A stretch of 60,219 nt of DNA, the filler included, from Dugesia japonica (Eukaryota): assembly GCA_001938525.1 (NCBI GenBank). It is 6 parts of 6 records of this genome, joined end to end, with 100 filler letters (N's around TTAATTAATTAA, not from the genome) between each part and the next. Parts side by side here need not be neighbours in the genome. Positions count along the whole stretch, not along the records: positions 1 to 8,943 come from MQRL01629775.1; 5 more parts are not named here. One strand, written 5' to 3'. The first letter of the stretch is position 1. The number at the start of each line of letters is the position of its first letter. Under the pieces are notes generated by a model that ran no database searches, had not been told where the DNA came from, and saw only the letters and a program-made list of their open reading frames with translations. The position numbers and the translations under genes are program-made. This document shows, one piece after another, positions 1-48,363 of the stretch.

Positions 1-63
1 ACATAAAAAGGCGTGAACGGTGATTGCGTCACTTCCGAGCTCGACCCTGCCTAACTATCTACT
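1..63 (-). mobile_element. Polinton/Maverick-type terminal inverted repeat end (right terminus of an element lying left of the window)
   Basis: The reverse complement reads AGTAGATAGTTAGG...CGGAAGTGACGCAATCACCGTTCACGCCTTTTTATGT and aligns without gaps to 59805-59867 (46/63 identical, 33/37 in the inner part). 5'-AG/AGT termini are typical of Polintons. Confidence 0.6.
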
Positions 64-483
64 AATATAGATGGAACAGAAACTCCTTAAGATGTTGAGA
101 TTTATTTAAATAAATTTGTTAGTCCTATTCCAACAAATAGTGATTATTGTAATATTTTAAAAAGAAAATTTAGAAGAGTAGATATTGCTGTAAAACCTAA
201 AAGAAAAAAAGAAACAATACTTAAATCAGAATCTAAATCTAATTTAAAACCTAAATCAGAATAAGAATCTAAATCAGAATATATGTCAGAAAAAACTAGT
301 GAATCAGAAGGAAATGCTCTCAATCCTTTGAGTTTATTTGAAAAGTTAACATTATTAATTTCAGCAGCAAAATCTGGGCATGATAATGTAAATGAAGAAA
401 TTAAAAAGACATGTAAAAAATTAAAGATGATGGGTTTAATATCTAACAAGATTTATAATAAATATAAAAAGAAATACTTATAA
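64..483 (+). pseudogene. Polinton protein with a C-terminal helical domain, 5'-truncated
   Basis: The frame of ORF 283-483 runs back to 64 with two stops. The C-terminus NPLSLFEKLTLLISAAKSGHDNVNEEI resembles the 'NP..L.ERL.LL.A...AG...V.NEI' motif I recall from invertebrate Polintons. Confidence 0.6.
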
Positions 484-500
484 TACTTATAAGAAATAAA

Positions 501-623
501 TATAAAAATAAATATGCCCACGAAGTGGGCTTTGTTAAATGATGGATGTTAAATGATGGATTTTAGATTTTAGATTTTAGGGTTTAACAAAACCCACTTC
601 GTGGGTTATATTTTTTATTTATA
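501..623. repeat. Intergenic inverted repeat (~40-bp arms), each arm containing a GAA-triloop mini-hairpin
   Basis: 501-539 matches the reverse complement of 583-623. Hairpins are GCCCAC-GAA-GTGGGC (516-530) and AACCCAC-TTC-GTGGGTT (591-607). Confidence 0.85.
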
Positions 624-625
624 AA

Positions 626-1405
626 ATGTCACATCAATTCTTAGTAGTTGGAAAAGAACAAGATTTAAGATTAGATTTAAGATTTCCTTTAGAATTAGAT
701 TCAGAATATGAACTTGGATTAATTGTTTTTTCATGTTACAATATTTTTTTTAACATAACAAATTTAAATAATAAATTTATTGTTAATATTAAAGAAGCTA
801 AAATTGAACCTGGATCATATGAAGTAAAAGTAATATCAGAGAAATTAAAAAAATATGAAATAGAAGTTATACCCGACACAGCAACAGCAAAATGTGAAAT
901 GAAAATAAAAAAACATTAACTTTTGATGATAAATCTTTCTTCCATAAAATTTTAGGTTTCGATGTAAAAACTTATCAACCAGGAGAATATTTCTCAGAAA
1001 ATAAAATTGACATTTCAAATATTAACACAATAAATATAACTTGTAATATTGTTAAAGGTAANNNNNNNNNNNNNNNNNNNNNNNNNNNNNNNNNNNNNNN
1101 NNNNNNNNNNNGACATTTCAAATATTAACACAATAAATATAACTTGTAATATTGTTAAAGGTAATTATGTAAAATCTCAAATAGGTGAAACCGAACAAAT
1201 AAATCTTTTATATTCATTTCCAATTAACACAGTTGGTTTAGGATATAAAATTCTTGAAAGACCAACATCAACAATTTATTCTAAAATTAACACAAATTAC
1301 ATTTCAAGTTTAAAATTTAATGTTGTAGATGAACATTTTAACACATTAGATTTTAACCAAGAAATAATTACAATTTTAGTTCATTTACGTAAGTATAGAT
1401 TATAA
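626..1405 (+). pseudogene. Polinton minor capsid protein (penton, single jelly-roll); one frameshift plus a gap-overlap artefact
   Basis: YELGLIVFSCYN..NI, IEPGSYEV, then after a frameshift in the A-run at ~907-913 TFDDKSFFHKILGF..YFSENKIDISNINTINITCNIVKG, then LYSFP..GYKILERP..IY..LKFNVVDE..LDFNQEIITILVHLR. 1009-1062 is duplicated at 1112-1163 across the N gap. Confidence 0.88.
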
Positions 1406-1408
1406 GAA

Positions 1409-1835
1409 ATGACATCTTACAATTTAATTGATTTCTTAAAAACATTTGGAATTAACACAACAAATTTTGATTTATATTCAATTGCAGACTTTTTACAAAT
1501 GGATTTAGAAATTTATATGAAAAGTGAAATACCTAAAAATTTAAAAGAAACGAATTACATTTTTAATTATCAAAATTCAAATCAAAAAAGAAACTCATTG
1601 GGTAGCATATTCTAACACATTTTATTTTGACTCTTTTGGTTTAAAACCTTTAGAAGGACTCGCTAGAGTCACCACGAAATATAATAAAATTCAAGTGCAA
1701 CATTTTGGTACTAAAATTTGTGGTATCTTGTGTATTTATTTTTTATATAAACTGGAGCGAAGTGATTTTGATGAAATAATTTTAGAGATGAAAAATTTAA
1801 CTAATTCCTTATTAGAAAAGGGATACAATGAATAA
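1409..1835 (+). pseudogene. Adenain-like (adenovirus C5 family) maturation cysteine protease; one frameshift
   Basis: After a frameshift in the A-run at ~1584-1589 the frame reads ETHWVAYSNTFYFDSFGLKP...IQVQHFGTKICGILCIYFL...GYNE*. His, Asp, Gln and Cys catalytic motifs are all present. The C-terminal half is missing from the ORF track. Confidence 0.9.
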
Positions 1836-2118
1836 GTTTGGAGAAAGTATATTTAATTTAAATACTTCGCAAATATTAAAAAGTGTTGATGCTAAAATTA
1901 GAATGTCAAATGCAGAAAATGAAAATAAATATGTAAATGAAACGGGTGACACAATTACATGTTTAAAAATAACAGAAGAGCCTAAAGATTTAAATGATGC
2001 AGTTAATTTAAAATATATAAAACTATTAGAAGACAAAATAGACAAACTTTTTAAAATTGATAATTTACAATCTAAGTTAAATGATAAAAACTGTAACAAA
2101 GAACATTTGATAAAATAA
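1828..2118 (+). CDS. Polinton fibre-like protein, N-terminal part
   Basis: Starts MNKFG and contains VNETGDTI and EPKDLNDAVNLKYI, a P..D.DAVN.KY motif of fibre or adhesin stalks. Coiled coil follows. A homologue sits in the same position after the protease at 18470. Confidence 0.55.
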   Translation: MNKFGESIFNLNTSQILKSVDAKIRMSNAENENKYVNETGDTITCLKITEEPKDLNDAVNLKYIKLLEDKIDKLFKIDNLQSKLNDKNCNKEHLIK

Positions 2119-2295
2119 ACTATAAAATTAAAAGATTAAGATTTGAAGTTTTTCCATTTAAAAGAAGTGATTTAACATTTCGCTAAAAAATTAGATTATG
2201 ATTTAAGTAAAAAAATTAAAAAAGAAATTCTAATATTAAATAATAAAATTAATAAATTAGATGATGATTTAGATAAGAAAACATTTGACCGGTAT

Positions 2296-3462
2296 GTGAC
2301 ACATATTGATAATATTAAATTCTATATAGAAAAATTTAAACCTATAATTTTAAAAATAGTTGAAGAAATAAAAATAATAAAACCAAAACTTCACAAAATA
2401 CAAATTGACAGAATTGAAGTTTTATTTAAAACTTTTAAAGAAACACTTTCAAATTCAGCACATGATAATTTAAGAAAATTACTTGATAATTATTTAGTAT
2501 ATATTTTTTTGTCAGGTGTTAATGCAATATTTTCAATTATCTGTTATGAAAAAAATCAAACTAATCCACATTTTCATATTAAAGATAAACATGTAAAGAA
2601 TTTTGATTTTATAAGTAAGGGTAAAATGAAAAATGATTATTTCTATCTTGAAGAACCTTTTGAAATATATTTAAATACAAACATTAATGAAAAACTTTGT
2701 ATATATATAGGAGGTTATTGTGAAATTAAAACATTTACATATGTCATTAGAATTAATAATACTGCAGCATCATTTGTTTATATGAAACCTAAAGATAATA
2801 CTTTTAAAATTTACAAAGAAAGCAGTGAAATTAATAAAGATACAAATATAAACTATATTGTAATAATTTTACCAAAAGATATTTATTTTAATCATGTAAT
2901 CATTGAAATATATAGATTTAAAATTTTAAATGAATTAATTAAAGAATTTGAAAAAATAAAACCTTACTTACATAAAATTTTTGTTGATAAAATTAGTGGT
3001 TTATTTAAAACTAATTCATTTAAAGAAATAAAAGGATTAATTGATAATTACTAACCTTATGATAATACACCTAGTAATGAAATATTTTCAATTACTTATA
3101 ATGTAAAAGATAATCTTCCTAAATTTTCTGTTATGGATAAATATGTTAATAATTTAGATTTTAAAAGAAAAGGTAAATTTATAGAATCTATTATTTTACA
3201 TACAACAAATATTAATAGAAAAATTAGTATAAATATAGATTGTTATTTTTATGAAATTGAAAAATTTACATACATCATTAGAATTAATCATTTTTCAGTA
3301 TCTTTTGTTTATATGAAACCTGAAAATAATACTATTAAAATTTATAGAGAAAGCACTGAAATTAGTAAAGATAAAAATATAAATTATATTGTAATAATTT
3401 TACCACCACTTGAACAACAAAATTATTTTGAAATGTTTAAGTGTAAAATTTTATTCTTATAA
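2296..3462 (+). pseudogene. Polinton accessory or receptor-binding-like protein with a tandemly duplicated domain; one in-frame stop at 3052-3054
   Basis: ORFs 2296-3054 and 3133-3462 share a frame, linked by *PYDNTPSNEIFSITYNVKDNLPKFSV. Internal repeat FTYVIRINNTAASFVYMKPKDNTFKIYKESSEINKDTNINYIVIILP versus FTYIIRINHFSVSFVYMKPENNTIKIYRESTEISKDKNINYIVIILP. Confidence 0.65.
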
Positions 3463-3463
3463 A

Positions 3464-4105
3464 ATGGAAGACAAAATATATCCTGGTTTACATGAAGATT
3501 ATACAATTTTAGATTTAAAAAATAAACTGTCGATGTCTAGAATTAGAGATTTTGAAAATGACCTTTTCTTTATAAAAGATAAAATTAAAAATTATAAAAA
3601 TATACATAAAAGATGGGAAATAATAGATTCAGGTATAAAATATACACAAATATTTGTTAGTGTTGAAATTGGAAATGGTGGTATAATTTTAATTACTCCA
3701 GATGGAGTTGCGCTTACAACAATTGGCTTACCAATAATTACTGGCGCAATTTCCGTGTTATCTGTAATTGGAACATTAAATTCTTCTTTAATAAGATCAA
3801 GAAAANAAAGATATGAAAAGTTAATAAGAAAACTTGAATGTGTTAAAAATAAATTATTTCTATTTCAACAGAAAGCCGATAATGATGAAATTTTAACTGA
3901 TGATGAAATTGCTATTAGTAAAAATATGGTAAATGAAGTTCATGAACTAATAACGGCAACAAAAAATGAAAAGTCTAAGAAGACAGATGAAAGTTTAAAA
4001 ATGTTAGTGCAAAATCAAACAAAGATTATTAATGAAATGAAATCGAAACTTAGGATCTCCTTAAACAAATTATCTAACATTTCATCATATTTCCTATTAA
4101 TGTAA
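3464..4105 (+). CDS. Polinton membrane protein (coiled coil, Gly-rich hydrophobic hairpin, coiled coil)
   Basis: ATG at 3464 gives MEDKIYPGLH. Hydrophobic stretch IFVSVEIGNGGIILITPDGVALTTIGLPIITGAISVLSVIG and C-terminal KADNDEILTDDE fit a layout common in invertebrate Polintons. Confidence 0.7.
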   Translation: MEDKIYPGLHEDYTILDLKNKLSMSRIRDFENDLFFIKDKIKNYKNIHKRWEIIDSGIKYTQIFVSVEIGNGGIILITPDGVALTTIGLPIITGAISVLSVIGTLNSSLIRSRKXRYEKLIRKLECVKNKLFLFQQKADNDEILTDDEIAISKNMVNEVHELITATKNEKSKKTDESLKMLVQNQTKIINEMKSKLRISLNKLSNISSYFLLM

Positions 4106-4824
4106 AAATAATTATATTTAGTTTTCCAGTGAAGATTTACCTCATAATCATATTCTAACTTATTACTGAAAATATTTGAAAACAATTCATGATAAACATT
4201 ATCTCTATCAGTTTTATTTAACTTAAAGAAAATGTAACAATTCGAATTATTCCTGATAGAGTTTTTATCTAAATGATAATATGTTTGTGAAATGTAAAGC
4301 ACATTACAATTTGAATGTCTACCTCTTGTAAAATCACTTTTTTGAATTTCTTGATTCTTTTCATTAACTACATCATCAAATATTATTAAGTTTTTCTTTT
4401 CCTTAGAAAGTTTGTCACAAGAAATTATTTCATTAGGTTTATTACTTAATGTTACAATTATAGATCTTGGTTTTCTAACTACTAATTTTTTCTGAAGATA
4501 ATATTGAACAACTTGATGTGGAGTAGTATATGTCTTTGGAACTATACTTTGTTTTTCAAACATTAAAATAATTTCTTCTTTAGTTAATCCATTTTCAAAA
4601 CCAATGTAAAGTAATTGTATTTCAAATTGATTAATTGTTGTTGAATAAAAAATAAAAACATTGTAATCTAAAAATTCTGGTGTTAATAACATTTTCATTA
4701 ATATAACATTTTTCCCACAACCTGAAGATCCAATCATTAAAAGTCCAAAATTATTAGGTAACACTTTATTATTAAAACTTGTAATATTATTATTCCAGAT
4801 CAGTGGAACTGTGGTTTCACTCAT
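4015..4824 (-). CDS. A32/FtsK-HerA-family genome packaging ATPase
   Basis: Walker A GSSGCGKN, Walker B LIIFDD, arginine finger FTRGRHSN, then YISQ and IRNN. Probable start MSETT at 4824. Confidence 0.93.
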   Translation of the reverse strand: MSETTVPLIWNNNITSFNNKVLPNNFGLLMIGSSGCGKNVILMKMLLTPEFLDYNVFIFYSTTINQFEIQLLYIGFENGLTKEEIILMFEKQSIVPKTYTTPHQVVQYYLQKKLVVRKPRSIIVTLSNKPNEIISCDKLSKEKKNLIIFDDVVNEKNQEIQKSDFTRGRHSNCNVLYISQTYYHLDKNSIRNNSNCYIFFKLNKTDRDNVYHELFSNIFSNKLEYDYEVNLHWKTKYNYFYINRKYDEMLDNLFKEILSFDFISLIIFV

Positions 4825-4846
4825 TTTTATATGACATATTTTAGCT

Positions 4847-5097
4847 TCAACCTTTTTTATATAATTGAAGCATTTCTTGAAGTCTAAATAAACATTTATC
4901 TGACCCATCACTCATTTTATTATATTTTAAATTTTCTATGTAAAATTTTACATCTAACAATTCTTTCTTCTTATCTATTAATTCTGTTAATTCTCTCTGG
5001 TAAAATTCACATTCATAATCATATTCACTTTTAAACATTTTAATCTTGTTTCTTCTATTTCTTTCGTAACATTTTTTAATTCTTTATCAACATCCAT
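4847..5097 (-). pseudogene. Small coiled-coil Polinton protein, frameshifted
   Basis: MDVDKELKNVTKEIEETRLK (ATG 5097) joins FKSEYDYECEFYQRELTELIDKKKELL with one frameshift near 5040. Confidence 0.45.
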
Positions 5098-5158
5098 TTT
5101 AGTATTTTGGATTTTAATCGGCGGAGCCGTGGTTTCACCGAACCATAACCTCCTTTTT

Positions 5159-6445
5159 TTATAAAGCTGATTTCTGAAGTTCGTTCGAATAAAATCTTCC
5201 CAATATTTTGTTACTGTTAAGATTTGAAATTTCAAATGTAAATGGGTTACGAAATATTTTAGTTATAATATAAATATTTTTTGACCATTTAAAAGTATAA
5301 CCTTTAGGAAATGTTTTTCCTATTTTAGTAATTCGTACACGATCTCCTATTTTAAACTTTAAGGTTTCATTGTTATCTTTTTTGTTTTTTATAATAATAT
5401 TTTCTGGATTTTTTGTTGCTTCTTGAGGTGTAATATTAATTGTTAAGTGTATTGTGTTATTGTAATCATTTACAATTTTCTCTAAAAGCTCTAAAGTAAT
5501 ATTTTGATTCCCAACGGTAGTAAAATGTTTAAAGAGCTTGTTTTTAAATGTTCTATTAAATCTTTCAATTACAACTGCTTTACCTTGATTTTCGGTTGAA
5601 TACATTTCAATGTTATTTTCTTCACAAAAATATTTAAAATGTTTATTGTAAAATTCTTTACCTTTATCAACCCATAATTTATTTGGAGTTCTAAAACTTT
5701 TAGTTAAAATGTTTTCAAAAGCTTTTGTTGTTGCTAGTCCAGTTTTACTTTTAGAAAGTTTGACAAATGCAAATCTTGTGTAAAGATCTATAACTGTTAA
5801 TATTACATTTTTACCTTTTCGTTCGATGCCTTGAAATATTAAATCTGCAGACTAAATATCATCTTTATCGTGTACAATTAATTTTCTAAAATGTTTTGGC
5901 TTTCTATAATCTTTATGAAGTTCTTTACTTTTAATTTCATTTGGATTAATTTCATCATCAGATTCTTCAATAATAATTTTACTTTTTCTATTTAAACTTT
6001 TACCAATCATTATTTTACCTTTCATAGCTAATTTTACAAGAGCCCTTTGAAATTTTTCTGTTGTAGTTGGATTTTCAATATTATTCAAATCATGTATTAA
6101 ATTTAAATCTGCGATGTGGCGATCTCTAATATCTTCTGAATTATATGTAATGTCGTGTTTTAAAGCTGCTGCATCAACTTGATTAATTGGTTCTTCTCCT
6201 AGATTTGACTCGAGATTTTCGTTTAATCTAATATCTAATCTAGTTCCAGGACCGGTATAATTATGACCAAACAAGTGTCTTTCACCTTCATATTTTTCTG
6301 TAGTAATTGGTTTTAATAATGTTGATATTACTTTTGAATTTTGTAAATCGCCTCTTTTATGTTTGCATGTTTTTAAATGTCTTGATTTATTTTTCTTTAA
6401 AATTATTTTACCACAATCTTCACACATAAAATTTTTAGATGACAT
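5159..6445 (-). pseudogene. C2H2 zinc finger / parvovirus-VP1-type phospholipase A2 / retroviral-type (rve) integrase fusion, 428 codons, one TAG at 5852-5854
   Basis: One frame: CEDCGKIILKKNKSRHLKTCKH; GHNYTGPGT...VDAAALKHDITY; ELHK...DDI*SADL (expected W-SADL), LTVIDLYTRF, LWVDKGKEFYN, IERFNRT, YNNTIH, FKIGDRVRI, GRFYSNELQK. Confidence 0.88.
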
Positions 6446-6449
6446 TTCT

Positions 6450-7772
6450 TTAACATTTAATATCAAGACCTCTAACATTTTCCACCGTAACAATTTTACT
6501 GTTTGCTAATTTCATTTCTACATGTTTTTCTTCGAGTATGCACCAATAAACAATTACATTAAAATCTGGATCCTTTTTAATTTTAAGTGTAACATCAACA
6601 TTATTAATATTCATTTTATCATCATGTGAGCTAGCATCGAAANAAAACAGTGGATAAAGATTTCCAAAATCTAAAAGTGATAATTGAGGTTCTGTAAAAA
6701 ATTCACGACAACATTTTACATATTCTAAATAAGGATGTGCCATCTCATTTCTTTCCATATCAAATTTACATTCATTGGCTGGATAATTACAATTGTTTAA
6801 TTGCAGTTGTATACCTTTAACATAATAATCTTTAGGAACTTTTTCTTTCTTTTCATTTTCAACATTTCTTGTAATTTTCTGGATAAATAAATTATTATTG
6901 ATTTGATGTAAGATTTCAATTTGTTTAAAACAAATTAAAATATATCTGGGTTGATATGCTAAGCTACCAATTTTAATTGAATAATATCCACCAGTTCCTA
7001 AGTTTGTTTTTCCTGTTATTCTATTTAAATAAGAAATTTTTATTGGTTTATTTGTTAGAATTCTTTATAACATAAACAATTCTGTTTTTGGTAATAATCT
7101 ATATTCTGGAATGTGTAATTCAAGTGTTAATAATTTTAAATTAGCCGTTGCGTCTTTTTCTTCATAAAATAATAGTTTATCTTCAATTTGACGATTACAT
7201 CTAATTTCTATCGATGTGTTATATAAAAGTCGATTATAATTTTGCATAAAACCTAGTAAGTTTTTTAATTGAAAAAATCCTTCAAATTTCTTTTTCTTAT
7301 AAAGTTTTTTTCTTGTATAATAACCAAGATTACATTCCCAATTTGTTACTTCAGTATCTCTATTATTTATATCGGGTATCCAACCTGACAATTGTCCATA
7401 TTCTTTTTTCCAAGTTTCAGTTGTAGTTATTAAATTTAACATTGTACTTATTACACCTGGATCATTTATTGTTTCGACTTCTGATGAACCAAGAAATAAT
7501 CTGATTGAATTAAACATACTTGGAAACCAATTATTTTCTAAAGTTATTTTTTTATCTTTCGATGCTTCTGGAATTGTAATCTCAATTGTAAAGTATAATA
7601 ATGAATTACAAATATCAAGTGGATTTTTAGATTGGAGAGATTTAAATACTATGTCACCACTTGCGTTTAGTTTGTTTATTGTTCTAGATGATGGAGAAAT
7701 TATTAATGTATAATTTTTAATTGCTGTATGTGAAAATTCAATATTATTATCTAAATCTATCACCGTGTTCAT
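6450..7772 (-). pseudogene. Polinton major capsid protein (double jelly-roll), 440 codons, one TAA at 7065-7067
   Basis: ORFs 7065-7772 and 6450-6758 are in frame. Motifs: FNSIRLFLGSSEVE..DPGVISTM, LKNLLGFMQNYNRLLYN, ELHIPEY, QPRYILICFK, LNNCNYP, YLEY, PLFxFDAS. Confidence 0.92.
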
Positions 7773-7833
7773 TTATTAGAGAAATTTTTTAGCGGCGTGT
7801 GTTTTTTTTATTTTGCGTTACTTTAAGCCTTAT

Positions 7834-7918
7834 ATTACATTACTATAAACCTTACTATAAACCTTACATTACGTTACATTACATTACTATAAACCTTACA
7901 TTACATTACGTTACATTG
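7834..7918. repeat. Short composite tandem repeat upstream of the major capsid gene
   Basis: ACTATAAACCTT occurs three times among ACATT/ACGTT pentamers. Confidence 0.7.
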
Positions 7919-8880
7919 CTGCATCGTGTATGGTTTTTTCATTCTTATAAAAAAATTATCATAATCAATTTCACCATTATCATTTATTTTTTTAATTGGT
8001 ACTTTAGTTGGTGCTTTGATTGGTGCTTTCTTTTCAAATCTATCAATTACAGAAATTAAACTTCCATGTGAATTTCTTTGTAAATTTCTAGAAGGATTCC
8101 ATGATCTAGTGTTATATTCAATGTTCCATTTCTTNNNNNNNNNNNNNNNNNNNNNNNNNNNNNNNNNNNNNNNTTTACAAAAATTTTGTATTGAGTTATT
8201 TTTAAAATTATATTCATTTAACATTTTATAGAAAACTGTATCCATTTTTATTGTTTTAATTTAGCATAGGCTCTTTTTACTCCAGTAATTTCTTCTTTAG
8301 CTGGTACACGAGTAAATTTTTCTGTTGAAAGCTTTTTAGTTTTTGCTCTTTCACTTAAAATAGCATAGCGTTTTGAAGTTAAATTTAATTTTTTATTTTT
8401 ATCTTCTGAATGAATTACTAAAATAACACCATCAACTTTTTGTGGCTTTAATTCTTGATTATGTTTTAATAAAACCTTATTGTGTTCATCTCTCTCTTTC
8501 TGCCATTCATATTGCTGTTCATTAATAATCTTTATATAAGCGTTTTTCTCTTCATTTAATGATTTAACCAATAAACCTCGACTTTCGCTTTGTACATATT
8601 TTGTAATAATTAAAGTCATTACCTTTTTAAATAAATTTTTATTTTCTTCTTCTAAATGTATTTCATCTAATTTTTCATATAATTTATAAAGATAATCCAA
8701 ATAACGTTTTGCAGTTTCATGTGAAAGTTCGCAATTTAAATATTCTTTTATTTCATCTAAATTTGACTCATCAAAACTCTCAAAACTCTTTATTGAATTT
8801 ACTAATGTACGTAAAGTTAACTCACTCACCACTTTTTCCTTTTCATCAACTTTTTTTCTGGAACAACTTTTTCTGTGCAC
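7901..8880 (-). CDS. Polinton accessory ORF(s) of unknown function (8248-8880 coiled coil; 7901-8245 spans a gap)
   Basis: Long charged helical ORFs co-oriented with the major capsid gene and only 2 nt apart. No recognised motif. Confidence 0.5.
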
Positions 8881-8987
8881 TCATTTTCTAAAGAATTAAT
8901 TTAAACCTTTTTTTATTATTCCTCTTAAATGGTCATTTTAAATNNNNNNNNNNNNNNNNNNNNNNNNNNNNNNNNNNNNNNNNNNNN

Positions 8988-8999
8988 TTAATTAATTAA
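8988..8999. other. Artificial scaffold-joining linker TTAATTAATTAA (also 17967-17978, 29408-29419, 38341-38352, 48308-48319)
   Basis: Identical six-frame-stop 12-mer flanked by N runs on both sides, five times. Confidence 0.97.
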
Positions 9000-9809
9000 N
9001 NNNNNNNNNNNNNNNNNNNNNNNNNNNNNNNNNNNNNNNNNNNTCGTGTATGAAATGTTTATATACTTCACTCTCATTCTGTTTGATATGTTCTTTGATT
9101 CTGGTTTTGATTGTTCTGAAGGTTTCCCCTATGTATGACTATATGCATATGATACAATTAATTTCATAAGTTACATTGTTTTAATTACATATGTACCGGT
9201 TAGAAATTAGTTAAGTAGCACAGCGTTTTCTTAAGAAAATGAAAATTTATAAATAAATGTTTTCACTTACTTCTGTTTACCATGGCATATTTTTCAAAAA
9301 GAGAATGTTTTTACTTTTTCTACTTATTCCAAGAATGAAAGAAATGCAACTAATTCTATAGGATAATAAATTAACCAAATATTTAAAAATAAAAAAATTT
9401 ATATTATAATATTAAATATCAATCAAACATTAAATTATATTAGCTTAAATTATTGTTATGAACTTTTAATATATTATTATTTTAATAAGATTCGTGTTAT
9501 GTTAAATAATATTCAAACAAATCAAATTTTACAATGAATTAATTAAGTTAACTTTAAAAAATTTGAATAAGCATATTAAAACATAAAACTTTTGTCTGTC
9601 AAAATCTCAAGGCAATCAGTGGAAAACTTTCGGATTTCATCGAATTTGAACAAACGTACCCTTATATTTTTATTTATATAGATAACATATTCATTTCTCA
9701 TTTACATAAAAATTTTTATTTACATTTTCATTTTACATGATATTTAATTTTTTTGAGCTTTTGTGGTTTCAAATTCATATTTTTATTTTATTTTCTTTTC
9801 TCAAGTACT

Positions 9810-9811
<2 letters not shown>

Positions 9812-9879
<68 letters not shown>

Positions 9880-9929
9880 NNNNNNNNNNNNNNNNNNNNN
9901 NNNNNNNNNNNNNNNNNNNNNNNNNNNNN

Positions 9930-9997
<68 letters not shown>
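9812..9997. repeat. (TTA/TAA)n microsatellite
   Basis: Pure ATT repeat with an internal gap. Confidence 0.98.
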
Positions 9998-12900
9998 TCT
10001 TTGGCTGAAACATCCCTTATAATGTAAAAGAATCAGAAACATTAAAACGAATAAATTAACCTAGAAATAATAAACCAAGAAAGATGAAAAAATAAAGGTC
10101 AAGAATAAAATAAATCAAAAATGTGAAACCGAAAAGAAATAATAAAAGAAAGAACTTTTGGGGTTCCACCTGATTTGGGTGGAGAAAAAGACGACTGGGG
10201 GCAAAACAACCATCAGGGGACCCCTTCAAGAATTTACCTAAAATCCCTTTTAGGTCTTTGGGGTTGAGTGGTTAACTCCCATCGTCTATTTGGAGTGCTC
10301 ACTTCACCCCTTTATTTCGGGTTCATCATTCCCCTTAAAGTATACGAGAATAAAAACAATATTTAAAAGAAAATTTATTCCATAAAACCAACGGCCCTCG
10401 GATCGAGCCACTCTGAGTGTTCCTCATCTAGCAGATCGAAGGCCGCCTCATCGTTCCCACTGTGCCAAGGGGATCAGTGTTCAATTTCTAATCTGGTAGC
10501 CAGATCTGCAATATATTGCTTTAGAAATGTGATCTTATTAATGAGAATTCACTGGGTGCGTGTATTCAGTTCACCTTGTTTTTGAACTATCAAATCGAGC
10601 TTTTTTATTAGCCTATTGCTCTGTGTAAAGTGGTGCAGTAAAGCACGCTCAATTTATCATTTTAGGTGCCGTTCCAACAAAGGTTTCTGTATAAAGCGGT
10701 GGCATCGCCGCAGGTTGTTGAGTAATTGTATTCGTGGCACTGAAAGAAATGATTAATAGATAGATAAATCCATACATTAATTTTATTTTAAAACCCTTAT
10801 GTTGTAGACAGAGTGGTTCAATAAATGCAAGAAATTCATCATAAACAATTTTTATTTGCACAAAAAAGAAAAAACGTCTTAAGTCATGAGGAGCGTGAGG
10901 TTTGTGTTAATTTATCGATCATCAACGGCTCGCACGGCATGGCTTTTCTCAGTGTTGACGTCTGCGACCAGTTTATTCTCTCGGTCATGAAGGGATCGGA
11001 TGATCTCTGCGAAAGATTTGATTTGACTCTTCCATAATCGTTCCAGTTCGTGGGAGGCTTCGGCTTCCTTACTAAATGCGATACATTTATTTTTGTAACG
11101 CTTGGTCTTACTTTCTGCTGCAGCAGTGTCAGCCTCCCAGTGACGTTTTGCAAGACGATAGAACTCCCATGACATTTCAGTATCATCACTGCTTTCCTTT
11201 GCTTTCTTAGTCGAGGCCACTGAACGATTGAGTGAAAAATACACTAAACAGGAAAGTTAATTTATCAATCAGTCATTAGTAAAGTTAGACAGAGTTTATC
11301 TTTAGTAACCTACTTATATCGAACATAACTCAGTTATCACAAAGGAAACCAAAAAGGATTTAGAAATTTTTCATGTAAGACAAAAATATTTTATTATTAC
11401 TCAACGACAGAAAGTAAACACAAAAGCATATACGACATTATTCATAAGTGAGTTACACTCTCCGTGGGGGGCTCCACCTTTTCCTCACTTCCCCCACTTT
11501 CTGTGTTTCGAACACTCCAGAGTGTGTCACTGATTAATCCACCTATACCGATAGGGGTGAGAACAGGCTCGGGTGATGGAGAGGTGTTCTCACTCCATTC
11601 TCATTGCATGACCGGCCTCCCATTTTCATAGTCTGCGGAAACCATTCCTACAGAAAAGATGACACGACTGCAGTCAGGGCCAGTCCAGTAATAATATGCT
11701 TGACGATCCGCTGCTTCCATATGTCGCTCCTCGTATGCGACGCTAGCTGGCAGGTTAGACCGTTCTATCAGAACGCCCGCATCTCGATTAAAAGGATTTG
11801 TATATTTCTTAAACAGCATCCAGCCAGTAACCCGGTCATGGATAACCTCCTATTTATGTTCCACAGTGAAATATATTTGTCTTTATTGTTTATAAACAGA
11901 AATCCAAATAAATATATGGTGTGTAAAACAAAAGGAAATTCTAACTAGATACATATAACAAATCAACTAAATTATTATTTATTTTAACAAAGCCATAATG
12001 AATAGAAAGAGAAAGGATTAAATATACTGTTAGATTTCTTCATCTATATTCACATTGTAATTCAATGGAAACATCTCGACGAAACACTGTAAATCTGTTT
12101 CGTCGGGTGTTCTATTTGTTTGGGGAAAAGGAGATGTTCTATTAGTTGTCTTATCCTGACAGTTTTCCTTTCTTTACGAATCAGCCTCAAGATGTGCCTT
12201 AACTCCGCCGTCATTTTCTAAATAAAAGTTAATAGTTACTAAAAAAATCCCTTGTTGACATGACGTTATCCCCAATGATTGTCAAAACAAATAACTCCTA
12301 ATAAAATAATCCCCAATATCTACATACTTGGCGCTGACCCGGGTGCTATTAGCACTACCAACAAAATAAATTTAATATTAATGTTAATGAAACCTATTAA
12401 TCGCAATCTTAATACTATTATTGGCATGACTAACCTAACACTAAGTCGATGATAATTCAATTTGTAATATTGTAATGCAATTAGTGATAATAATCATACC
12501 AATATGAATAATAGTAAGTTATCAACGAAAATACGGTAAAACTGAAAATGATGGTACTAGGAATACCGTTGTCAAACGGATGTTAATAGAATTTTTTAGA
12601 GAATTAAAATTTTTTTTGCCAGTTTTACCCAGGATACACAAAGACCACTAATGAGTATTAATGGCACGAACATGTTGGCTTAAGTTTTGTGATGCGCACG
12701 AGAATCATAACAAAAATATGGAGAAGCTGACTGTAGGAAGGCTTAACAAAGTAACTTTATGGAGTTAATAAATGAATCATTGTCTTTCCTTGTACTAATG
12801 CCTCGACGTTATTTCGAGTAAGTTTACCAATAGAGATTTAGCACGACCTAAATGCTGATTGGATATATTTATTACTAAAATGATAGTATCAATTACCATT

Positions 12901-14599: not shown

Positions 14600-17290
14600 C
14601 GACTACTTTCCTGTTGGCTAACTATTTTTATTTTTCGGTTCTTGTTTCCTATTGGTGCCTACTCTAAAATTCTAAAATGTTTGATGATTTTTGATCACAT
14701 TATTGGTGCCTATTTTTGGAGCACCTTGTGATTTTTATTTCCTTGTTTTACGTTTCTTTTCGGGCCCCTTATTGNCTCATTCTTCAAATGGTGCTGCAAT
14801 GAGAGCGTAGTCTTTTATAAACCGCCTGTAATAATTGGTTAGACCTAGAAATGCCCGTATTTGTGTGGTGCATTTTGGTATCTTTGCTTCCCGAATTTTC
14901 CTGATAGTATAGTCATTTGTCTCTACACCTTTAACACTAATTGTATGACCCAAGAATCGCAATTTCTCAGAATTGAATACGCATTTATCCGGATTTATCT
15001 TTAAACCTGTTTTTTAGTAAAGAAAAAACGTTACCAACCAGTTCATCATGCTCTTGTTGAGTTCGTCCATATATCAAACTACCATCCAAGTATACTAGTA
15101 TTCCTTTGTACAACATTCTGTTGAATAATTGATGCATCAAACTTTAAAAAGTTGCTGGTGCAGTGCAAAATCCAAATGGCATGCGAATAAAGCAAAACTG
15201 CCCCATCTTTGTACTAAAAGCTGTTTTCAACTTCGATTCTTCACTTAACTCAATTTGGTAGTATGCTTGCCCCAAATCTAGCGATGAAAATAAAATTGAT
15301 CCCTCAAGCGTGTCGACAAGTAGTTGAATATCAGGCACCGGAAAAGAGTATTTATCTGTAATTGAATTTAATTTCCGAAAATCCAGACACAATCTTATTG
15401 TTCCATCTTTCTTCGGTACAATTACCAATGGGGCATTCCACGGATTTCTGCAACTCTGGATAATATTTTCTTTTCTAAGATTTCCAATAACTCATCAATT
15501 TTGCTTTCCAAATGCATTGATTGTCTTCTAGGATGTAACATTATTGGTCCTCCTTTTGTTTCAATGTGATGCTGCATTATTGTTGTAAATACAAGATCAA
15601 ATTTCGATGTGATAAATACCTCTAAGTGTTCTTCTATCAGTCTTTTAATTTCTTGACTGACATTCCTTTGAATATTAAGAAGATTTTTCACTCTATTTGA
15701 ATTCTCAACAACTGGCTCAACAGCATCCTTTGAATCAAAAAAATCAACTTCAGTTATCTTCATTCCAAATATCCTCATCATGTCAATGGCCCTAATAAAT
15801 TCAGAACGAATATCTTTGACAATTACTACCTCTTTTTCTCTTCGTTTTTCATACCAATGTAAATGTAATTTAGTTTTTACCAATACATCTTTCTCCTTTC
15901 TATGAAAAAACTCTTGATAACACAATCTGCGTCTGCGATAACGCCGATGATCCAATTCTTCTCCAAACTTCTGCACTCATTACTGATATTAATGCTCCTT
16001 AATCCCATAACATTTCAACATCATATCCATTTCGCCGCATTATACTCCATTCTCTTCCATCTTTCTTCTGAAAAACCTTCTTTTTATCTAATATCATTCT
16101 TGCATCTCTAGTTTTGCTATCATTTATTGCAACCTCACTGATGAGATGGATGCAGTGGGTTGCAAATCATTTTTTATATCTTCATCGTCTGTAAGTACAT
16201 CATGTATATAATCTATAGATTCCCTTGTACAGGACCGATTATCATCCTCTTCTGCAATACACAAAACTTTAGACACCGAAAAATCTTTTACTCGAATTAG
16301 CAAACAATCCCGCAAACTATGATCTTAATTTTCAAAAATGAAGCATTTTCCTTTCAATGGAAAATTTATCTTTTTATAACTAGTTTCTTAACAGCAAAAA
16401 CATGCTCCTGTCTTTAGGATTTCGTTTCGCGGCTGTATTTTCCCTTTAGTTTTACAATATAGTTTATTTGCTAAATGTTTCAATGAACACGGCGGGAAAT
16501 TATTGAACTGACTTTGTTTTTGTATCGGTTTGCTTCGTTTGAAATGTGGATCTTCTTGAAAACGAGTTGACGGGTCTTTAATATTTGTGTCCCTTTGAAC
16601 ACTTATCTTTGGATGATTTTTTCCAAATTTCGATTGATATATATTCTTTTTTAATGAATCAGCATAACTCTCTTTCACCATACTTACAGAGTGCGCTGGT
16701 ATTAGGNNNNNNNATTTAGTAGCCAATTCTCTTCGTTGAATATCTGTTAACTCTGGTTGGAGGACAAATGATTCCTTCAACTTTTCGCTCCGTATAACAT
16801 TAGTTATGTATAATGTAACTATTTGTCTAATGTCTTTTTACTTGAAAATACTTCATTGACAAGCTTTCTAACTCTAATTTCAAAATTTCGATATTTTTCA
16901 TTTGGTTTCTGCATTATTCTTGACAAGCTTGAAAATTTATCGACCAATGTTTCTTGAATAATGAATGACTCTTGAAACCAACGTTCAAAAATTTCATTAG
17001 ATAATTTCTCAACTTCTTTTGTTTTTCCAACCACAATTCCTTTGCATCGTGTCGCATTAGCATATCAAATACAAACGATAATTCCATCTGAATGAACGAT
17101 GCGAATTCTTTTGTTGTTTGAAGCCACTCTTTAGCTTTATCTGATGATCCATCAAAAAAACTCTGCTTTGAAATTAGTAACTCCTGAGTTGAAGATGGTA
17201 ATTTCGAAAAACATTTTTGTCTTTCATCTTTTCGTTTTTTGCCATCGTGTTCACTGTAATGTGATTGACAGTTCGAACACAAGATTCTTC
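14600..17290 (-). mobile_element. Degenerate Ty3/Gypsy LTR retrotransposon (gag, protease, RT)
   Basis: RT motifs VIVPKKDGTIRLCLDFRKLN, LDLGQAYYQI, MPFGFCTAPATF, VYLDG (decayed YLDD), FLGH, FLGLTNYYRRFI. Gag with zinc-knuckle remnants near 16310-16400. Many stops and frameshifts. Confidence 0.92.
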
Positions 17291-18022
17291 CATAATGTTT
17301 ATTTATTAAAATTCAAATTATAATTACAAAACTGATAATATTTAAACAAAGTTTATATATCAATTTATAACTGATATATAACTTAACCAATTGATAATTA
17401 TTCCTAATCAATTTTCCAGCTCCCTTGCTTTATTTTATTACTTCCAAATTGGGCTCCTGACCCTAATTTCCTTCTAAAGCTGGGTGTTTCACCCCAACAG
17501 AATTATAAATCGGAGAATAAATATTAGAAATAAGAAAACAAATGAACATAAACCACAACAATAATTAAAAAGCTCAGGAATAGTAAGAAAATAAAGAACT
17601 GATTATTATGAAAGAATTAAATAAATTAAAGAAGAATTAATTATTAAAATAAAATAAAATGATAAAAGAAGAAAGTGAATTAATAATTAAAACAGAATTG
17701 TGCACAAAGAAAGTAATAATCAATTTAGTAAAGATGTTGGGGTGGAACACCCCTAAAGTAGAAAAATGAATCAATGAAGGAAAAAAATTAATCATGCAAT
17801 AATGAAAATGTGAAGAAATGAGACCATAGTGAAGCAACAATTAAGATCATTAATAATTCTAAACGAAACCATCGAAAAAACAATAATAAAAATAATTAAT
17901 TAATACGGAAAAAATTAATTAANNNNNNNNNNNNNNNNNNNNNNNNNNNNNNNNNNNNNNNNNNNNTTAATTAATTAANNNNNNNNNNNNNNNNNNNNNN
18001 NNNNNNNNNNNNNNNNNNNNNN

Positions 18023-18472
18023 CATTTGGTATTAATACTAAAACAAATTTTGATTTAAAAGAATATTCTATTCAATTAAATTTACCTGTTAAAATAGTAA
18101 TGAATGATGAGCTTTATAAATTAAAGACAACTAAGAAACACAATGGGCTTTCTAAGCCCCAAAGTCCTGAAGGACTTAACGTAATTATTAATTATCAAAA
18201 CTGAAATAAAAACGGTTCACATTTGGTTTCTTTTAAAGACAGGCTAATATATTTTGATTCATACGAAATTAAACCAACAGATGAAGTTGAAGCTTTTTAC
18301 ATAAAGATTATTTTTCTAACAAATTACAAGTACAACCTAATGATACAAATATATGTGGTATATTATGTCTTTATGTTTATATATGTTATAAAATTCAGAT
18401 ACTTATTTTGATAAAATTATTGATTCTATTTATACAGATTTACAAACTCTTTTAAATAAATTAATAAAAATG
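18023..18472 (+). pseudogene. Second, diverged Polinton adenain protease
   Basis: FGINTKTNFDL...IINYQN*NKNGSHLVSF...YFDSY..KP...QVQPNDTNICGILCL, collinear with 1409-1835. Confidence 0.85.
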
Positions 18473-20445: not shown

Positions 20446-22600
20446 AAGTTGCTGGGGCTGATGGCAACGTGAACGGCATTCAGTTATAGCAAAACTGGAC
20501 CTTTTTTGTCAAAAATGCTGTTTTCAATTGTGACGATTCATCCAAGAATACTTGATAATAAGCTTGTCCTAAATCTAATGATGAAAAAATGGAAGCTCCT
20601 GGAAAAGTATCGAATATGGTTTGCGGATCTGCCATGGGAAACTAAATTTTTCTGTAACCTCGTTAATCTTCCTATAGTCCTGGCACATCCTAATCGTTCT
20701 GTCATTCTTTCCCACAACTACGAGTAGCGAGTTCCATGGACTATGTCATTTCCTAATTAAAACCATTTTCAACAACTTCGAGATTATATCATCCACTTTA
20801 AATTTCGTTTGCATCGCCATTCCTCTTGTATTTTGACTTATTGGAGTCCCTACTGTTTTTATACAATGTGTTACCAGATTTTTACATCCTAAATCGAACT
20901 CCAGTGCAATAAAAATAGAACCATATTGCAATACTAATTCTGTGAACTTTGATAAATTAATGAATCCAAAAATATTTAAAGCCTTTTGTCCTCTTTCTTC
21001 ATTCCAATATGTCAAACCTAAGAATTCATTGATACTCTCGATAAAAGTCTCAATCCAAAAGATGAAATAATATTCCTACCACCAACAAAACTCGGATTTA
21101 TATCTTTAACTACCGTAATCTGGATATTCTTAATGATTCCATTCCAACTAACCAAAGCTTTTAACTCTCCTAAACATGCTATTGCTGTAGCACCAAATAC
21201 TCCTCTAAGAGATATGTCTGATTACCATAAGATAGGATTTCCGCACATTTTCCACTTACCTTCTGACATCACCGTTACTGCTGCGCCCGTAATCCATAAC
21301 ATCTCTATCATCTTTCCACAGCATTCAACCAAACTTCACCATCTACCATCTGCCTTTTTGAACCTCAACATTTTGATTTCCTGCATCTGCAACATTTAAT
21401 TCAATGACTCCACAGTGGAAATGTATGCCATGGAGCGTCTGTCGTTTAAATTATGATCTTGTCTATTTGTGTTTTGATCATATATAATAGCTCCAGTCTC
21501 TTTCTCTTCAAAATCTCTGGTTTCATCATGTTTCAAATCGCCTTAACTATATACTTGATCGTCTGAATTATTTTCTTCATGAATACACTGAGCCTTTCTT
21601 GTGTTATTTCGCAATAAGATAAAATTATTAAAATAAATATTGTCCTTAACACATATCAAACAACACTTATTCAATGGACAGTTGTTTCTGACATGGCTCA
21701 CCACAACAATAACATTCCCCTGGTTGAAATCATCATAATTCGGGCTCATGTAATTCTTTCGCTCTGTTATATACTCTTCTTGCTATATGCTTTATGGAAA
21801 CCATAGGTCTTTGGGGCTTATCGTTTTCGTTCGACTTCTCCACAGGTTGTCTTCTCTCTGAAACCTGCAGTACTTTATTTGAGTTGGAATATCGTTTCCC
21901 TTGATTATTTACCAATGGTTTGATTACCAGTGGTATTTTGTGTCTAATTGATCTTTTAATACCTGTTACTGCTTCGTATGTCGGCATATGTTCTCTTTTG
22001 CTATCTTTAATTGCAATAACGTCTGACCTTTCTTCAATACACATTGAAGTTTCGAAATTTATAGTCAATTTTTCAATTTCTTCCAAAGACATATCTGGAT
22101 TCATGGCGATTGACTCCTTTACTTCCCCGAAGAACATTCGTTTTGAAATTATATCCTTCACGATCATGTCTTCTGTTTGCTTCACCGATAAAACTTCTCT
22201 TATTAACTTACTCACTCTAGTAGCAAAATTCTCATACCTGTCATTTGATCGTTGATTAACTTAACTTAGCTCAAATCATCGATCTTTTGCAAAGATGTTT
22301 TTGACTTGATGTACTTTGAACTATATCAATTTCTTGTATCTTCATCTGACGGAATCTTTATTTTTTCTTTAAAGGCTATGCATAATTCTTTTGCGTCACT
22401 GTGCAGCAATAAATCGAATGCTGTAGATAAATTTAAAGAGTTAATGGTTACAAAATCTTCAATTGATTGTGGTCACTCTTTCGCATCTTCTTTCTTGTAG
22501 CAAAAAACTTTTTTATTATTGGACAATTTTCATCCGCTGCTTACTCTGTGAAAACTGGGATTTCGGCGTGATCGCCAGTTACAATACCATTTTGACACAT
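20446..22600 (-). mobile_element. Degenerate Ty3/Gypsy retrotransposon (PBS, gag, protease, N-terminal RT)
   Basis: PBS TGGCGATCACGCC at 22577-22565, gag knuckle CYCCGEP/HVRNNCP, protease MLWITGAAVT (decayed DTGA), RT IRMCQDYRKIN and MPFTLPSAPATF, truncated at ~20446. Confidence 0.88.
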
Positions 22601-22679: not shown

Positions 22680-23767
22680 ATAATTATCTATCATTATGAT
22701 AGGTTAGATCAATTAACTTTGGCTCCAGAACATAAATGTTCACCTGGGTCAAACATTAAGAAATTGTTAATGACACATTAACCAAAACGACATTTTATCA
22801 TATATTGGCAATTGTTAGAATTATATATAAATCTCGGGGCTCGTGTAACTGCAGTTCAAAGAATAATTTAGTTCAAAAAAATGGAAATATTTGCCAATTA
22901 TACTCATGCAAATTCAGCGAGAAGAGCAAAGTCTAAGTCCAAATATGAAAATAATTTCTACAAACTATTAAATAATACGTTATATATTAAGACTGTGGAG
23001 AATTTAAAGAAACGTATGGATCTCGGGCTATGTAACAATGAGAAGAAATTGGTAACTTAAACTAGCAAATTTATATTTAAGCAAATAATGGACATTTTAG
23101 AAGGACTCAAGACTGTATTATTAAAGAAAGATACAATATGTTTCGATAAACCGAGTTATATTAGCCAGGTGATTCTAGATTTGAGTGCGAATGTATAGAC
23201 TCCAATATGAGGAACTTGAAAAATATCGAAATGAATTTGGTTGCAAAATTTGATATAATTGCTGGAGATACGGAGAGATTTTTCTTATCTTGTAACGAAG
23301 TAGATAAAAACCAACTCTTATCCCAAATAAAATCTGATGGTCTTCTGGATACAAGGAATTATCTAACAGGTCATCTACTCTAGTCCAGCAATGTGGTTAA
23401 TAAAATTGAATTGTTTAAAGACGAAGGAGAAGGTGAAAGATATACTGAATGGGTATTCCTAAGGCCAAAATGTTATATTTTGAAGAAGGAAAATTCTATT
23501 ACGATAATGAAAGCAAAAGGAATCAGTTTAAAATAAACAAATATCAATCATCAAAACTATTTAAATACATACAATAAAGATGAATACGAAGAACAACAAC
23601 AAATCAAGGTTATGCAGACTAGCTTTTCGTCGATAAATCATCAGGTTTACACAATGGAGAGTGACAAACGCGTATTGCCATACCTACATGATAAGCGCTT
23701 TTGGAATGAAAGAAATACTAGTATGGACTATGTTTATCATAAAATTAATAATAAAACTAATAATTAA
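22680..23767 (+). pseudogene. Polinton protein-primed family B DNA polymerase (pPolB), C-terminal part
   Basis: LTLAPEH, FYKLLNNTLYIKTVENLKKR, FDKPSYISQVILDLS, AGDTERFF (decayed DTDS), FKDEGEG..EWVFLRPKCY, MKAKG, LHDKRF..YHKI. Several stops and frameshifts; absent from the ORF track. Confidence 0.9.
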
Positions 23768-37210: not shown

Positions 37211-38459
37211 AATCTTAAAGNNNNNNNNNNNNNNNNNNNNNNNNNNNNNNNNNNNNNNNNNNNNNNNNNNNNNNNNNNNNNNNNNNNNNNNNNNNNNNNN
37301 NNNNNNNNNNNNNNNNNNNNNNNNNNNNNNNNNNNNNNNNNNNNNNNNNNNNNNNNNNNNNNNNNNNNNNNNNNNNNNNNNNNNNNNNNNNNNNNNNNNN
37401 NNNNNNNNNNNNNNNTACTTTTTATTTATTTCTTTTCATTAACTTATCAAAACTTGTAACAAATGAAAATGTTTTATTTAGCATAGAACTCTCATAATAT
37501 TACTAATAAATTGAAAACGAAAATTTTCAATTTAAAAAATTTTATCTGACAGATATTTGATAAGAATATTTATCAGTAAAATCTGATAGTCGCTTTTTTA
37601 ACGTGAAATTTAAACTAGACATAATAACAATTTATTGAAGAGAATTGTTGCTGATCAGTTACTAATTTTGATTCTCTTTTAAACAAAATTCGTATATTAA
37701 TTGAATATGAAAAATTTGAATACCGAAAAAATGATATTAAAAATTATTTAACATTAAATACAAAAGAGACCATTTTTAATAATTCATTTTCTAACTAACA
37801 ATAATACAGTTAAATATTATTNCAGATTTATTTGTTTGTTAGTTTATTTATTTTTTCTAATTATTTATTAGTTTATTTCAAAAAATCATTGTTTCTTCTT
37901 CTCATCACCGATGTTTGTCAACAAAATTACAAAGAAAATGAACAAATGAAGAAAATAATGGCCAAGAAATTGCAATAAGATTTATGGTCTCATTTGTATT
38001 GAGATCAGATTAGTTATTTAACCATACAAGGTTCTCCAATGAATTGAATATTAATAGAATCTTTAGAAACGCAATTCTGTAGGTAATATAATATTTAAGA
38101 GAAGACTATAGAAAAACAATGAATAGTTTACCAATAGATTCGTGGCAAGGCTAAAAATTCCCTAAACTCTATCAGAACAATTGAAGATATTTAAATAAAA
38201 CTTTGCACGTAAAATAATAATCATATTCATAGGTATGGAATGTACGATTTGTTTTAATATGGTAATTTTTGTTTGCACTAAATTAGAATATTTAAANNNN
38301 NNNNNNNNNNNNNNNNNNNNNNNNNNNNNNNNNNNNNNNNTTAATTAATTAANNNNNNNNNNNNNNNNNNNNNNNNNNNNNNNNNNNNNNNNNNNNTTTA
38401 CAACTCAAGTGTTAATTTTTATGGAAACAAATAACAAAATAAAAGATTCTGAGGAAACT

Positions 38460-44250: not shown

Positions 44251-44439
44251 TTGATTTGTTTTAATAAATATTAATAAATTGCTCGGAATATTTTGTTGTA
44301 AAATTTTGCATTAACTAATAAAAATATTTAAGTTTTTACTTAATAAATTTGATTATTATTTGATTAATAAATAATAATGAGCTGTTTACAAAAGTTGAGA
44401 TCCCTTATAATTTTATGGTAAATAAAATAATTTCCACAC

Positions 44440-47400: not shown

Positions 47401-47489
47401 TAAACATATTATTAGGATTAGTTTGTGAATCTATTTGCATTCCGAACATAGTTCTAGCAATAACATCCATTGTTAAAGCACCAAAACAC
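44440..47489 (-). CDS. Cytochrome P450, clan 3 (CYP3A-like); four internal exons 47489-47341, 47285-47146, 47093-46842, 44681-44440
   Basis: MDVIARTMFG, I-helix FLLAGYETT, K-helix ETLR, AIHTDPSIWSNPDRF. GT-AG introns of 55, 52 and ~2160 nt keep the frame. Confidence 0.92.
45315..46080 (+). mobile_element. Mariner transposon, 3'-truncated pseudogene inside a P450 intron
   Basis: KEEIRYIMKFYF..GKNATQAA, DVKDAPRSGRP, WIPHDLT, ITCDEKWI, PKKVMLCIWWDYKGII. Ends before the second and third catalytic Asp. Confidence 0.92.
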
Positions 47490-48363
47490 CTTAAAAAATA
47501 GAAATAAATACGAAGGCAAACAAATAAATCTAATTTTTTCAGTATTTCAGTAGAAGAATAATAGAAATATTGAAACCTTTGATTACTTGGACCATTTTCT
47601 GGATAATTTAATGGTGTAGTCCAGATTCTCCAAATTCCAAAAATTTGATACTATTATACACAATGTAGATTGTGGACAAGGTGTGACAATAAATTTCCTT
47701 AACTGTTATTAGAATGCAAGTTGCATACAATATATTTTGTATATTGTCAGCAGGATATAGGCTTCATTGATATTTTTAAAATAGCAGAGGCGGCCAACTT
47801 TTGTGTACATAAGATCTACTTTTTATCGTACAAATGCGTCGCGATCGACTTGAGACCTTTTTTTTAGTTAATCGGAAAATAGTCAATAGACATACTATAT
47901 TTATATCTACATATGTAAACAATAACATAATTATTTCACGGGCCAAACTGTCATATCCGAGGGTTTTCGAAGAACATGCGTAATTATTAACAATATTTAT
48001 TAATATAAATTAGTTTAGTTATTTTTATTTCAGTCCTTTTTTTTCTTAGGTAATTTTTATTCTTCATAGAAATGCATTTACATAAAATTATGAATAAAAA
48101 TATTTTCTAGAAATATTCACACCAAAGTGTAAAAATTAAAATAAAAACAGTTAAAAAATAGTTTAAAATAATCATTTCAGCTTTTGAAAATCAAATATTA
48201 AGGTAAAAACGTAATAATTAAAGCTAACTCCTTAAAATCTATTGGTTTATCAAGTGGATATTCNNNNNNNNNNNNNNNNNNNNNNNNNNNNNNNNNNNNN
48301 NNNNNNNTTAATTAATTAANNNNNNNNNNNNNNNNNNNNNNNNNNNNNNNNNNNNNNNNNNNN

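Follow-up and report, generated by a model that had tools for sequence, protein, structure and literature searches.

The minus strand of a 60,219-nucleotide stretch of Dugesia japonica DNA (assembly GCA_001938525.1, filler included; hereafter the window) carries a dead copy of a Polinton/adintovirus gene fusing a phospholipase A2 (PLA2) domain to an integrase, and the fusion is probably a Gag-Pol-like precursor that packages the integrase, with release by a protease predicted. With slightly less confidence, we extend this reading to a Gag-Pol equivalent for Polintons and adintoviruses at large. A -1 frameshift at the heptamer A_AAA_AAC would dose the integrase, some lineages would have it hard-wired in frame or carried by a protease, adenain would free it, and many annotated integrases would be mis-started, without their first catalytic Asp. 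If so, a dsDNA virus would have a retrovirus-like answer to the question of how integrase reaches a newly infected nucleus; gene callers would shorten the integrase in -1 elements, and intact elements may be scored as broken. Against the overall reading, neither canonical cut motif is present in the window copy, whose protease and capsid genes are also broken. Features of the gene and its element are collected in Table 1.

Table 1. Features of the PLA2-integrase gene and neighboring element genes, in window coordinates.
Feature	Positions	Strand	Basis or remark
PLA2-integrase fusion gene, decayed Polinton/adintovirus	5159..6445	-	Single frame with one internal stop
CCHH zinc-finger-like motif, residues 8-29	6359..6424	-	Sequence; 5/57 family clusters
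Parvovirus-VP1u-type PLA2 domain, residues 57-148	6002..6277	-	PF08398, folds, alignment
PLA2 motifs: YTGPG; HD; second PLA2 Asp D113	6245-6259; 6152-6157; 6107-6109	-	Sequence, alignment
Junction K144-x3-G148 and linker	5927..6016	-	In frame; no slippery heptamer, no hairpin
Internal stop, codon 198	5852..5854	-	Translation; sister-copy reads
rve integrase, residues 174-428	5162..5926	-	Pfam, alignment, fold matches
Integrase catalytic acids D201; D260; E294	5843-5845; 5666-5668; 5564-5566	-	Alignment
Double jelly-roll major capsid gene	6450..7772	-	PF21738, tblastn; in-frame stop at 7065-7067
A32/FtsK-type packaging ATPase	4015..4908	-	PF04665, tblastn
Adenain-like cysteine protease gene, broken into two frames	1406..1835	+	tblastn
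Penton-like minor capsid gene, assembly gap inside	626..1405	+	tblastn to related-locus ORFs

Read with X at the stop, positions 5162-6445 translate into 428 residues in a single frame with one internal stop. The PLA2-like domain model PF08398 matches residues 57-127 above the Pfam cut-off (E 2.1e-9), and the calcium loop YxGxG, the DxxxxxHDxxY motif and the second Asp are all present. Model PF00665 (rve) matches residues 199-282 of the decayed window copy slightly below its cut-off (E 5.4e-7), and exceeds the cut-off in eight of nine relatives tested. The three catalytic acids are invariant in a 52-sequence alignment. Translation, Pfam and alignment agree in this with the sequence-only reading, which had described an intact YTGPG calcium loop, HD dyad and D-D-E integrase; its placement of the start 4 nt past the capsid stop is also correct (ATG 6443-6445, stop 6450-6452). 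A zinc-finger motif, C-x2-C-x12-H-x5-H, is present N-terminally and matches no Pfam family. The window integrase has no C-terminal chromodomain, and its C-terminal domain is beta-rich.

A sequence search of the whole window protein against solved structures gave no matches. In the AlphaFold model, residues 150-162 form a low-confidence linker between two separately modelled domains. The best solved match to the PLA2 part is rice PLA2 (Z 8.3, rmsd 3.6, 91 aligned), with a Z only modestly higher than that of unrelated helical rows; in BFVD the PLA2 model matches PLA2 domains of parvovirus and densovirus VP1. Fold comparison of the full model finds retroviral, Ty3, mavirus and MELD-virus integrases.

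Region 626-7772 holds the virion module of a Polinton/adintovirus that has decayed within an AT-rich animal genome. The rve D-D-E integrase is accompanied there by all of the capsid, penton, A32 ATPase and adenain genes that mark a Polinton/Maverick. On the minus strand the order is capsid gene, fusion, A32 ATPase, while the penton-like gene and adenain lie on the other strand. The penton-like gene is identified by its similarity to genes labelled as penton in the PMC11071296 supplement. No protein-primed PolB occurs within positions 1-10000, where the element meets the left end of the window and has gaps at about 8.9-9.0 kb; PolB is present beside relatives. No terminal inverted repeat bounding the element is listed in the window, and the ends of the element lie outside it. 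Broken PolB pieces at 22695-23701(+), which may belong to another copy, and a short match at 18184-18390(+) to a 130-aa ORF of related locus L054 are probably a second decayed Polinton fragment.

Several other regions were assigned by eye. Positions 265-483(+) look like the C-terminus of a conserved accessory gene of adintoviruses; the ORF at 8248-8880(-) resembles the gene before PLA2X in Adinto5616. Gypsy-like retrotransposon fragments, and host ORFs that resemble cytochrome P450 exons and enclose a mariner-like piece, account for 44364-47650(-), 45465-45848(+), 15144-17312(-), 20746-22260(-) and 38412-38744(-).

The internal stop is a product of decay. Two DNA runs, taken from two studies, each yielded over 11,000 contigs that align along the gene; of the summed depth at the stop codon, over 99.9% in both runs departs from the window copy, so only this copy or a few carry the stop. 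The sequence-only reading had read through the stop to a single polypeptide and looked to other genomic copies and raw reads for the state of the codon; most sister copies lack the stop, the architecture is open across the family, and the single polypeptide stands. A role for the stop as a read-through or separation signal is ruled out by sister copies and homologs that are open there, and an assembly chimera is ruled out by the family-wide architecture. Copy number of the element family in the host is extremely high, with most contigs matching window positions 4900-6630 at 90-95% identity. No transcript was seen, as two RNA runs of the host species (6% and 25% read) gave just 2 and 11 partial reads on the gene.

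Both domains occur in one open protein in 92 of the best 120 of 329 homolog matches, and a further 25 of 146 representatives at 50% identity carry PLA2 plus integrase. The 98 full-length fusions fall into 57 clusters at 70% identity. The calcium loop is found in 52 of these clusters, the D..HD..Y motif in 53 and the second Asp in 54. By motif search, an N-terminal finger is CCHH-type in 5 of the 57, C4-type in 6 and absent from 46. It is thus an optional N-terminal add-on on sequence evidence and was rejected as a core domain; the earlier claim of a zinc finger as defining third domain does not extend beyond a small part of the family. In 15 of 16 locus pairs, pN is far below pS in both domains; the exception is the L052 pair, misregistered in PLA2 by a duplicated helix. 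A quick integrase tree, used only for the clade of the window and the scatter of junction types and not for event order, places the window in an 18-row clade that is entirely in frame (SH-aLRT 99).

Novelty of the fusion, which the sequence-only reading had left open, does not survive. The architecture is common, and two genes, of Adinto6405 and Adinto15303 (GenBank TPA BK066529, BK066759), already bear the label 'PLA2-Integrase' in a 2024 preprint by Buck et al. (PMC11071296, supplement file 2). Both have the same in-frame architecture, and Adinto6405 resembles the clade of the window by eye. The window copy is therefore a new member of a recorded architecture, and within its very high-copy family it is one ordinary decayed copy.

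The position of the integrase frame varies among relatives. In 144 related loci (L001-L144), which also supply the gene context, a PLA2 ends no more than 400 nt before the integrase in 74, or 72 after removal of two duplicates, of L002 and L003, that came from a PLA2-only scan. The integrase is in frame in 30 of the 72, at -1 in 28, at +1 in 8, and in frame with a stop in 6; these class counts are not frequencies, because the searches were seeded with in-frame fusions and one search kept 80 of 451 matches. Loci from a loose DNA pattern scan (121) and a hairpin pattern scan (2) all lacked PLA2 or integrase and were dropped.

Programmed -1 ribosomal slippage is characterized by an in-register X_XXY_YYZ heptamer and a stimulatory structure 5-9 nt downstream, and A_AAA_AAC is the slippery heptamer of MMTV gag-pro. 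A heptamer in register within the overlap was found in 22 of the 28 -1 loci (17 of the 20 undecayed) and in eight of the ten clusters holding -1 loci, and it is A_AAA_AAC in 14 of the 28. The background rate is 23 in 7,931 flanking coding codons, with none for A_AAA_AAC. AAAAAAC appears in the first 40 nt of the junction in none of 17 undecayed in-frame loci and in three decayed in-frame loci. The window gene has no -1 frameshift signal, its integrase being in frame and its junction fold at z 0.37.

Six of twelve folded -1 junctions have a stem that starts 5-7 nt past the heptamer. In L063, L067, L086, L108 and L111 the distance is 5-6 nt, with z from -2.1 to -4.3. These five loci are related and divergent, with synonymous sites near saturation, and share a stem of 9-12 bp in which every change among them keeps pairing; covariation is not significant (61 of 500 shuffles, with just 6 sequences). 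The unrelated L055 has a stem of its own (z -3.3). No significant hairpin was found in L061, L066, L068, L081 or L082, and L139 is marginal. L052, a member of the stem clade, has an in-frame junction (about 674-740) that is 8 nt shorter; it retains the 3' stem arm and A_AAA_AAC, which follows the duplicated helix, and lacks the 5' arm. L052 is likely a fossil of the frameshift state, and this one example suggests that in-frame fusions can arise from that state.

An alternative accepts the fusion but takes most of the -1 arrangements for errors, either sequencing slips or decay in the Lys-coding A-run of an in-frame gene. One 37-locus cluster with A6-A9 runs holds 14 loci at -1, 8 at +1, 10 in frame and 5 with a stop, a mixture that would be expected of homopolymer errors or decay. 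One protein cluster also holds both fused and split copies, which differ at a Lys run, and L002 resembles a plain indel. A-run errors do account for part of the -1 class. Outside the 37-locus cluster, however, 11 loci in seven clusters hold exactly six A and a C in the slippage register and are never +1, and five divergent loci have a hairpin in common. Every core gene found is unbroken, the junction apart, in L068, L108 and L110, and five of nine long -1 loci have no other core-gene break; the +1 loci L085 and L106 also have their other genes unbroken. As an account of most of the class, error is unlikely.

Some other route might join the -1 genes: the polymerase could slip on the A-run, a small splice could restore the frame, or the integrase could begin at a non-AUG codon or by reinitiation. 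Runs of A7-A9 are present in about half of the -1 loci, and an integrase-frame ATG precedes the conserved N-terminal motif in L003, L065, L072 and L087, L003 having its own ATG and no heptamer. Yet 24 of the 28 lack such an ATG, the junction is just 35-92 nt long, and by the rules given above ribosomal slippage fits heptamers of six A that stand in codon register and are followed 5-7 nt later by a stem. We assign this route, too, a low probability and favor ribosomal frameshifting. The Lys-Lys or Lys-Asn after the GxG motif may itself be under selection as protein; separate PLA2X genes also end GLKK (PMC11071296 supplement). Given the mixed frames, L002 and L003, possible selection on Lys and biased sampling, the case for frameshifting is strong in the A_AAA_AAC clades but uncertain in the A-run cluster.

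The arrangement bears on annotation. The first Met of the integrase frame follows the first catalytic Asp in 22 of the 28 -1 loci. Among integrases with no PLA2 next to them, by contrast, 28 of 30 have an upstream Met of their own. In the PMC11071296 supplement, the Adinto13074 integrase is annotated from after the first catalytic Asp, and the adjacent PLA2X and integrase are listed separately.

A motif of the form K-x3-GxG/GG stands at the junction in 50 of the 57 clusters, and GG precedes the PLA2 in 26 of the 38 clusters with an N-extension. GG/GxG is the motif type cut by virophage and adenovirus proteases. Born et al. 2018 (PMC6048507) report that the mavirus protease cleaves GG↓X and GX↓G, and that mavirus virions contain a cleaved hydrolase as well as an rve integrase. 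Inside fused integrase cores GG/GxG occurs 2 times against 11.9 expected; it is also scarce inside unfused integrases, at 57 against 100. The sequence-only reading had proposed a virion-borne precursor, possibly cut by adenain. The junction motif and the mavirus precedent make this plausible for the family; in the window copy both candidate cut sites have non-canonical residues. The coupling of entry to integration in that reading is not supported in the sense of one acting molecule: the conserved cut-type motif suggests that lipase and integrase come apart inside the particle, which makes packaging and dosage the likelier role of the link.

A second partner for the same integrase was found. 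In two separate clades (P0077, P0081, P0092 and P0097; P0248 and P0267), an adenain-like protease is fused to it in frame, with a Gly-containing junction. The term 'adenain-integrase' has no matches in the searched supplements of PMC11071296.

The fusion might instead remain uncut, with PLA2 as an N-terminal integrase domain for membrane anchoring or nuclear-envelope passage, unrelated to packaging. The absence of canonical cut motifs from the window copy and of the junction motif from 7 of the 57 clusters would fit, and because separate PLA2X genes end in the same K-x-x-x-GxG (PMC11071296 supplement), the motif may be structural. The two domains, however, are modelled as folding independently on a flexible linker, stand-alone integrases occur in many relatives, and a protease can replace PLA2 as partner, suggesting that any virion protein will do as carrier. 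We consider an uncut fusion quite improbable, less likely than either alternative to frameshifting, and prefer a precursor that is cleaved.

In retroviruses and LTR retrotransposons, Gag-Pol places integrase behind a particle protein by -1 slippage or in-frame fusion, and a protease releases it. The PLA2-integrase is alike in having integrase behind a putative particle protein, at -1 or in frame, with protease release predicted. It differs in belonging to a dsDNA virus, in having a lipase and not a capsid protein as carrier, in a predicted reliance on a clan CE cysteine protease, and in lacking reverse transcriptase. By the mechanism we propose, PLA2, with its predicted activity, would be a virion protein that helps the particle leave the endosome, the role it has in parvoviruses. 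Most ribosomes in -1 lineages would stop after PLA2, and a minority would slip at A_AAA_AAC to yield PLA2-integrase, a hairpin aiding slippage in some lineages; a low integrase-to-PLA2 ratio would thus be fixed. In the lineage of the window the join is in frame, so the ratio would be 1:1. Adenain would cut the GG/GxG motifs flanking PLA2 and free lipase and integrase, so that the incoming genome would arrive with integrase. We infer slippage, cleavage, packaging and PLA2 activity. No virion has been observed for Maverick-Polintons (10.64898/2026.06.19.733378).

Among described systems, adintovirus PLA2X (Starrett et al. 2021, PMC8502044) and the Sf Maverick CAP (PMC5803895) likewise place a parvovirus-VP1-type PLA2 in a Polinton virion module. 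PLA2X is a separate gene with a C-terminal pX-like domain, while in the window gene the integrase follows PLA2 directly and no pX-like domain is present; on this comparison the window gene would work like PLA2X but is not one. In mavirus, the rve integrase MV02 and the hydrolase MV13 are both in the particle (PMC6048507), but they are encoded by separate genes, the hydrolase is an alpha/beta hydrolase instead of a PLA2, and there is no frameshift.

In the accessible part of PMC11071296 the fusion is present as a label only: 'pla2' occurs 0 times in the main text, and -1 slippage is proposed for Penton and Hexon-Adenain only. The words 'fused' and 'fusion' occur 0 times in PMC8502044, both in its text and in the supplement searched. 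We found neither a PLA2-integrase precursor nor a frameshift at its junction discussed in the literature searched, which excluded most subscription journals and Repbase reports. A term look-up of the accessible parts of PMC8502044, PMC5803895, PMC3671162, PMC11071296, PMC6048507, PMC11161782 and PMC11131425 found none, and neither did one of 10.64898/2026.06.19.733378, 10.64898/2026.10.13.758929 and 10.1101/2023.08.22.554363, with bioRxiv supplements and GenBank feature tables outside its scope. In this literature neither the -1 frameshift link nor a Gag-Pol-like packaging role appears to have been reported, and these are the new elements here.

Two minor observations arose from the searches. 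In the unrelated viral contigs L266 and L267 (1501-1540), AAAAAAC is followed by a GC-rich hairpin-like stretch, and these are possibly other frameshift sites. Polinton contigs L106-L142, of which L108 and L110 are apparently intact, lie within GTDB MAGs classified as 'bacterial' or 'archaeal', likely through contamination of the bins by eukaryotic viruses.
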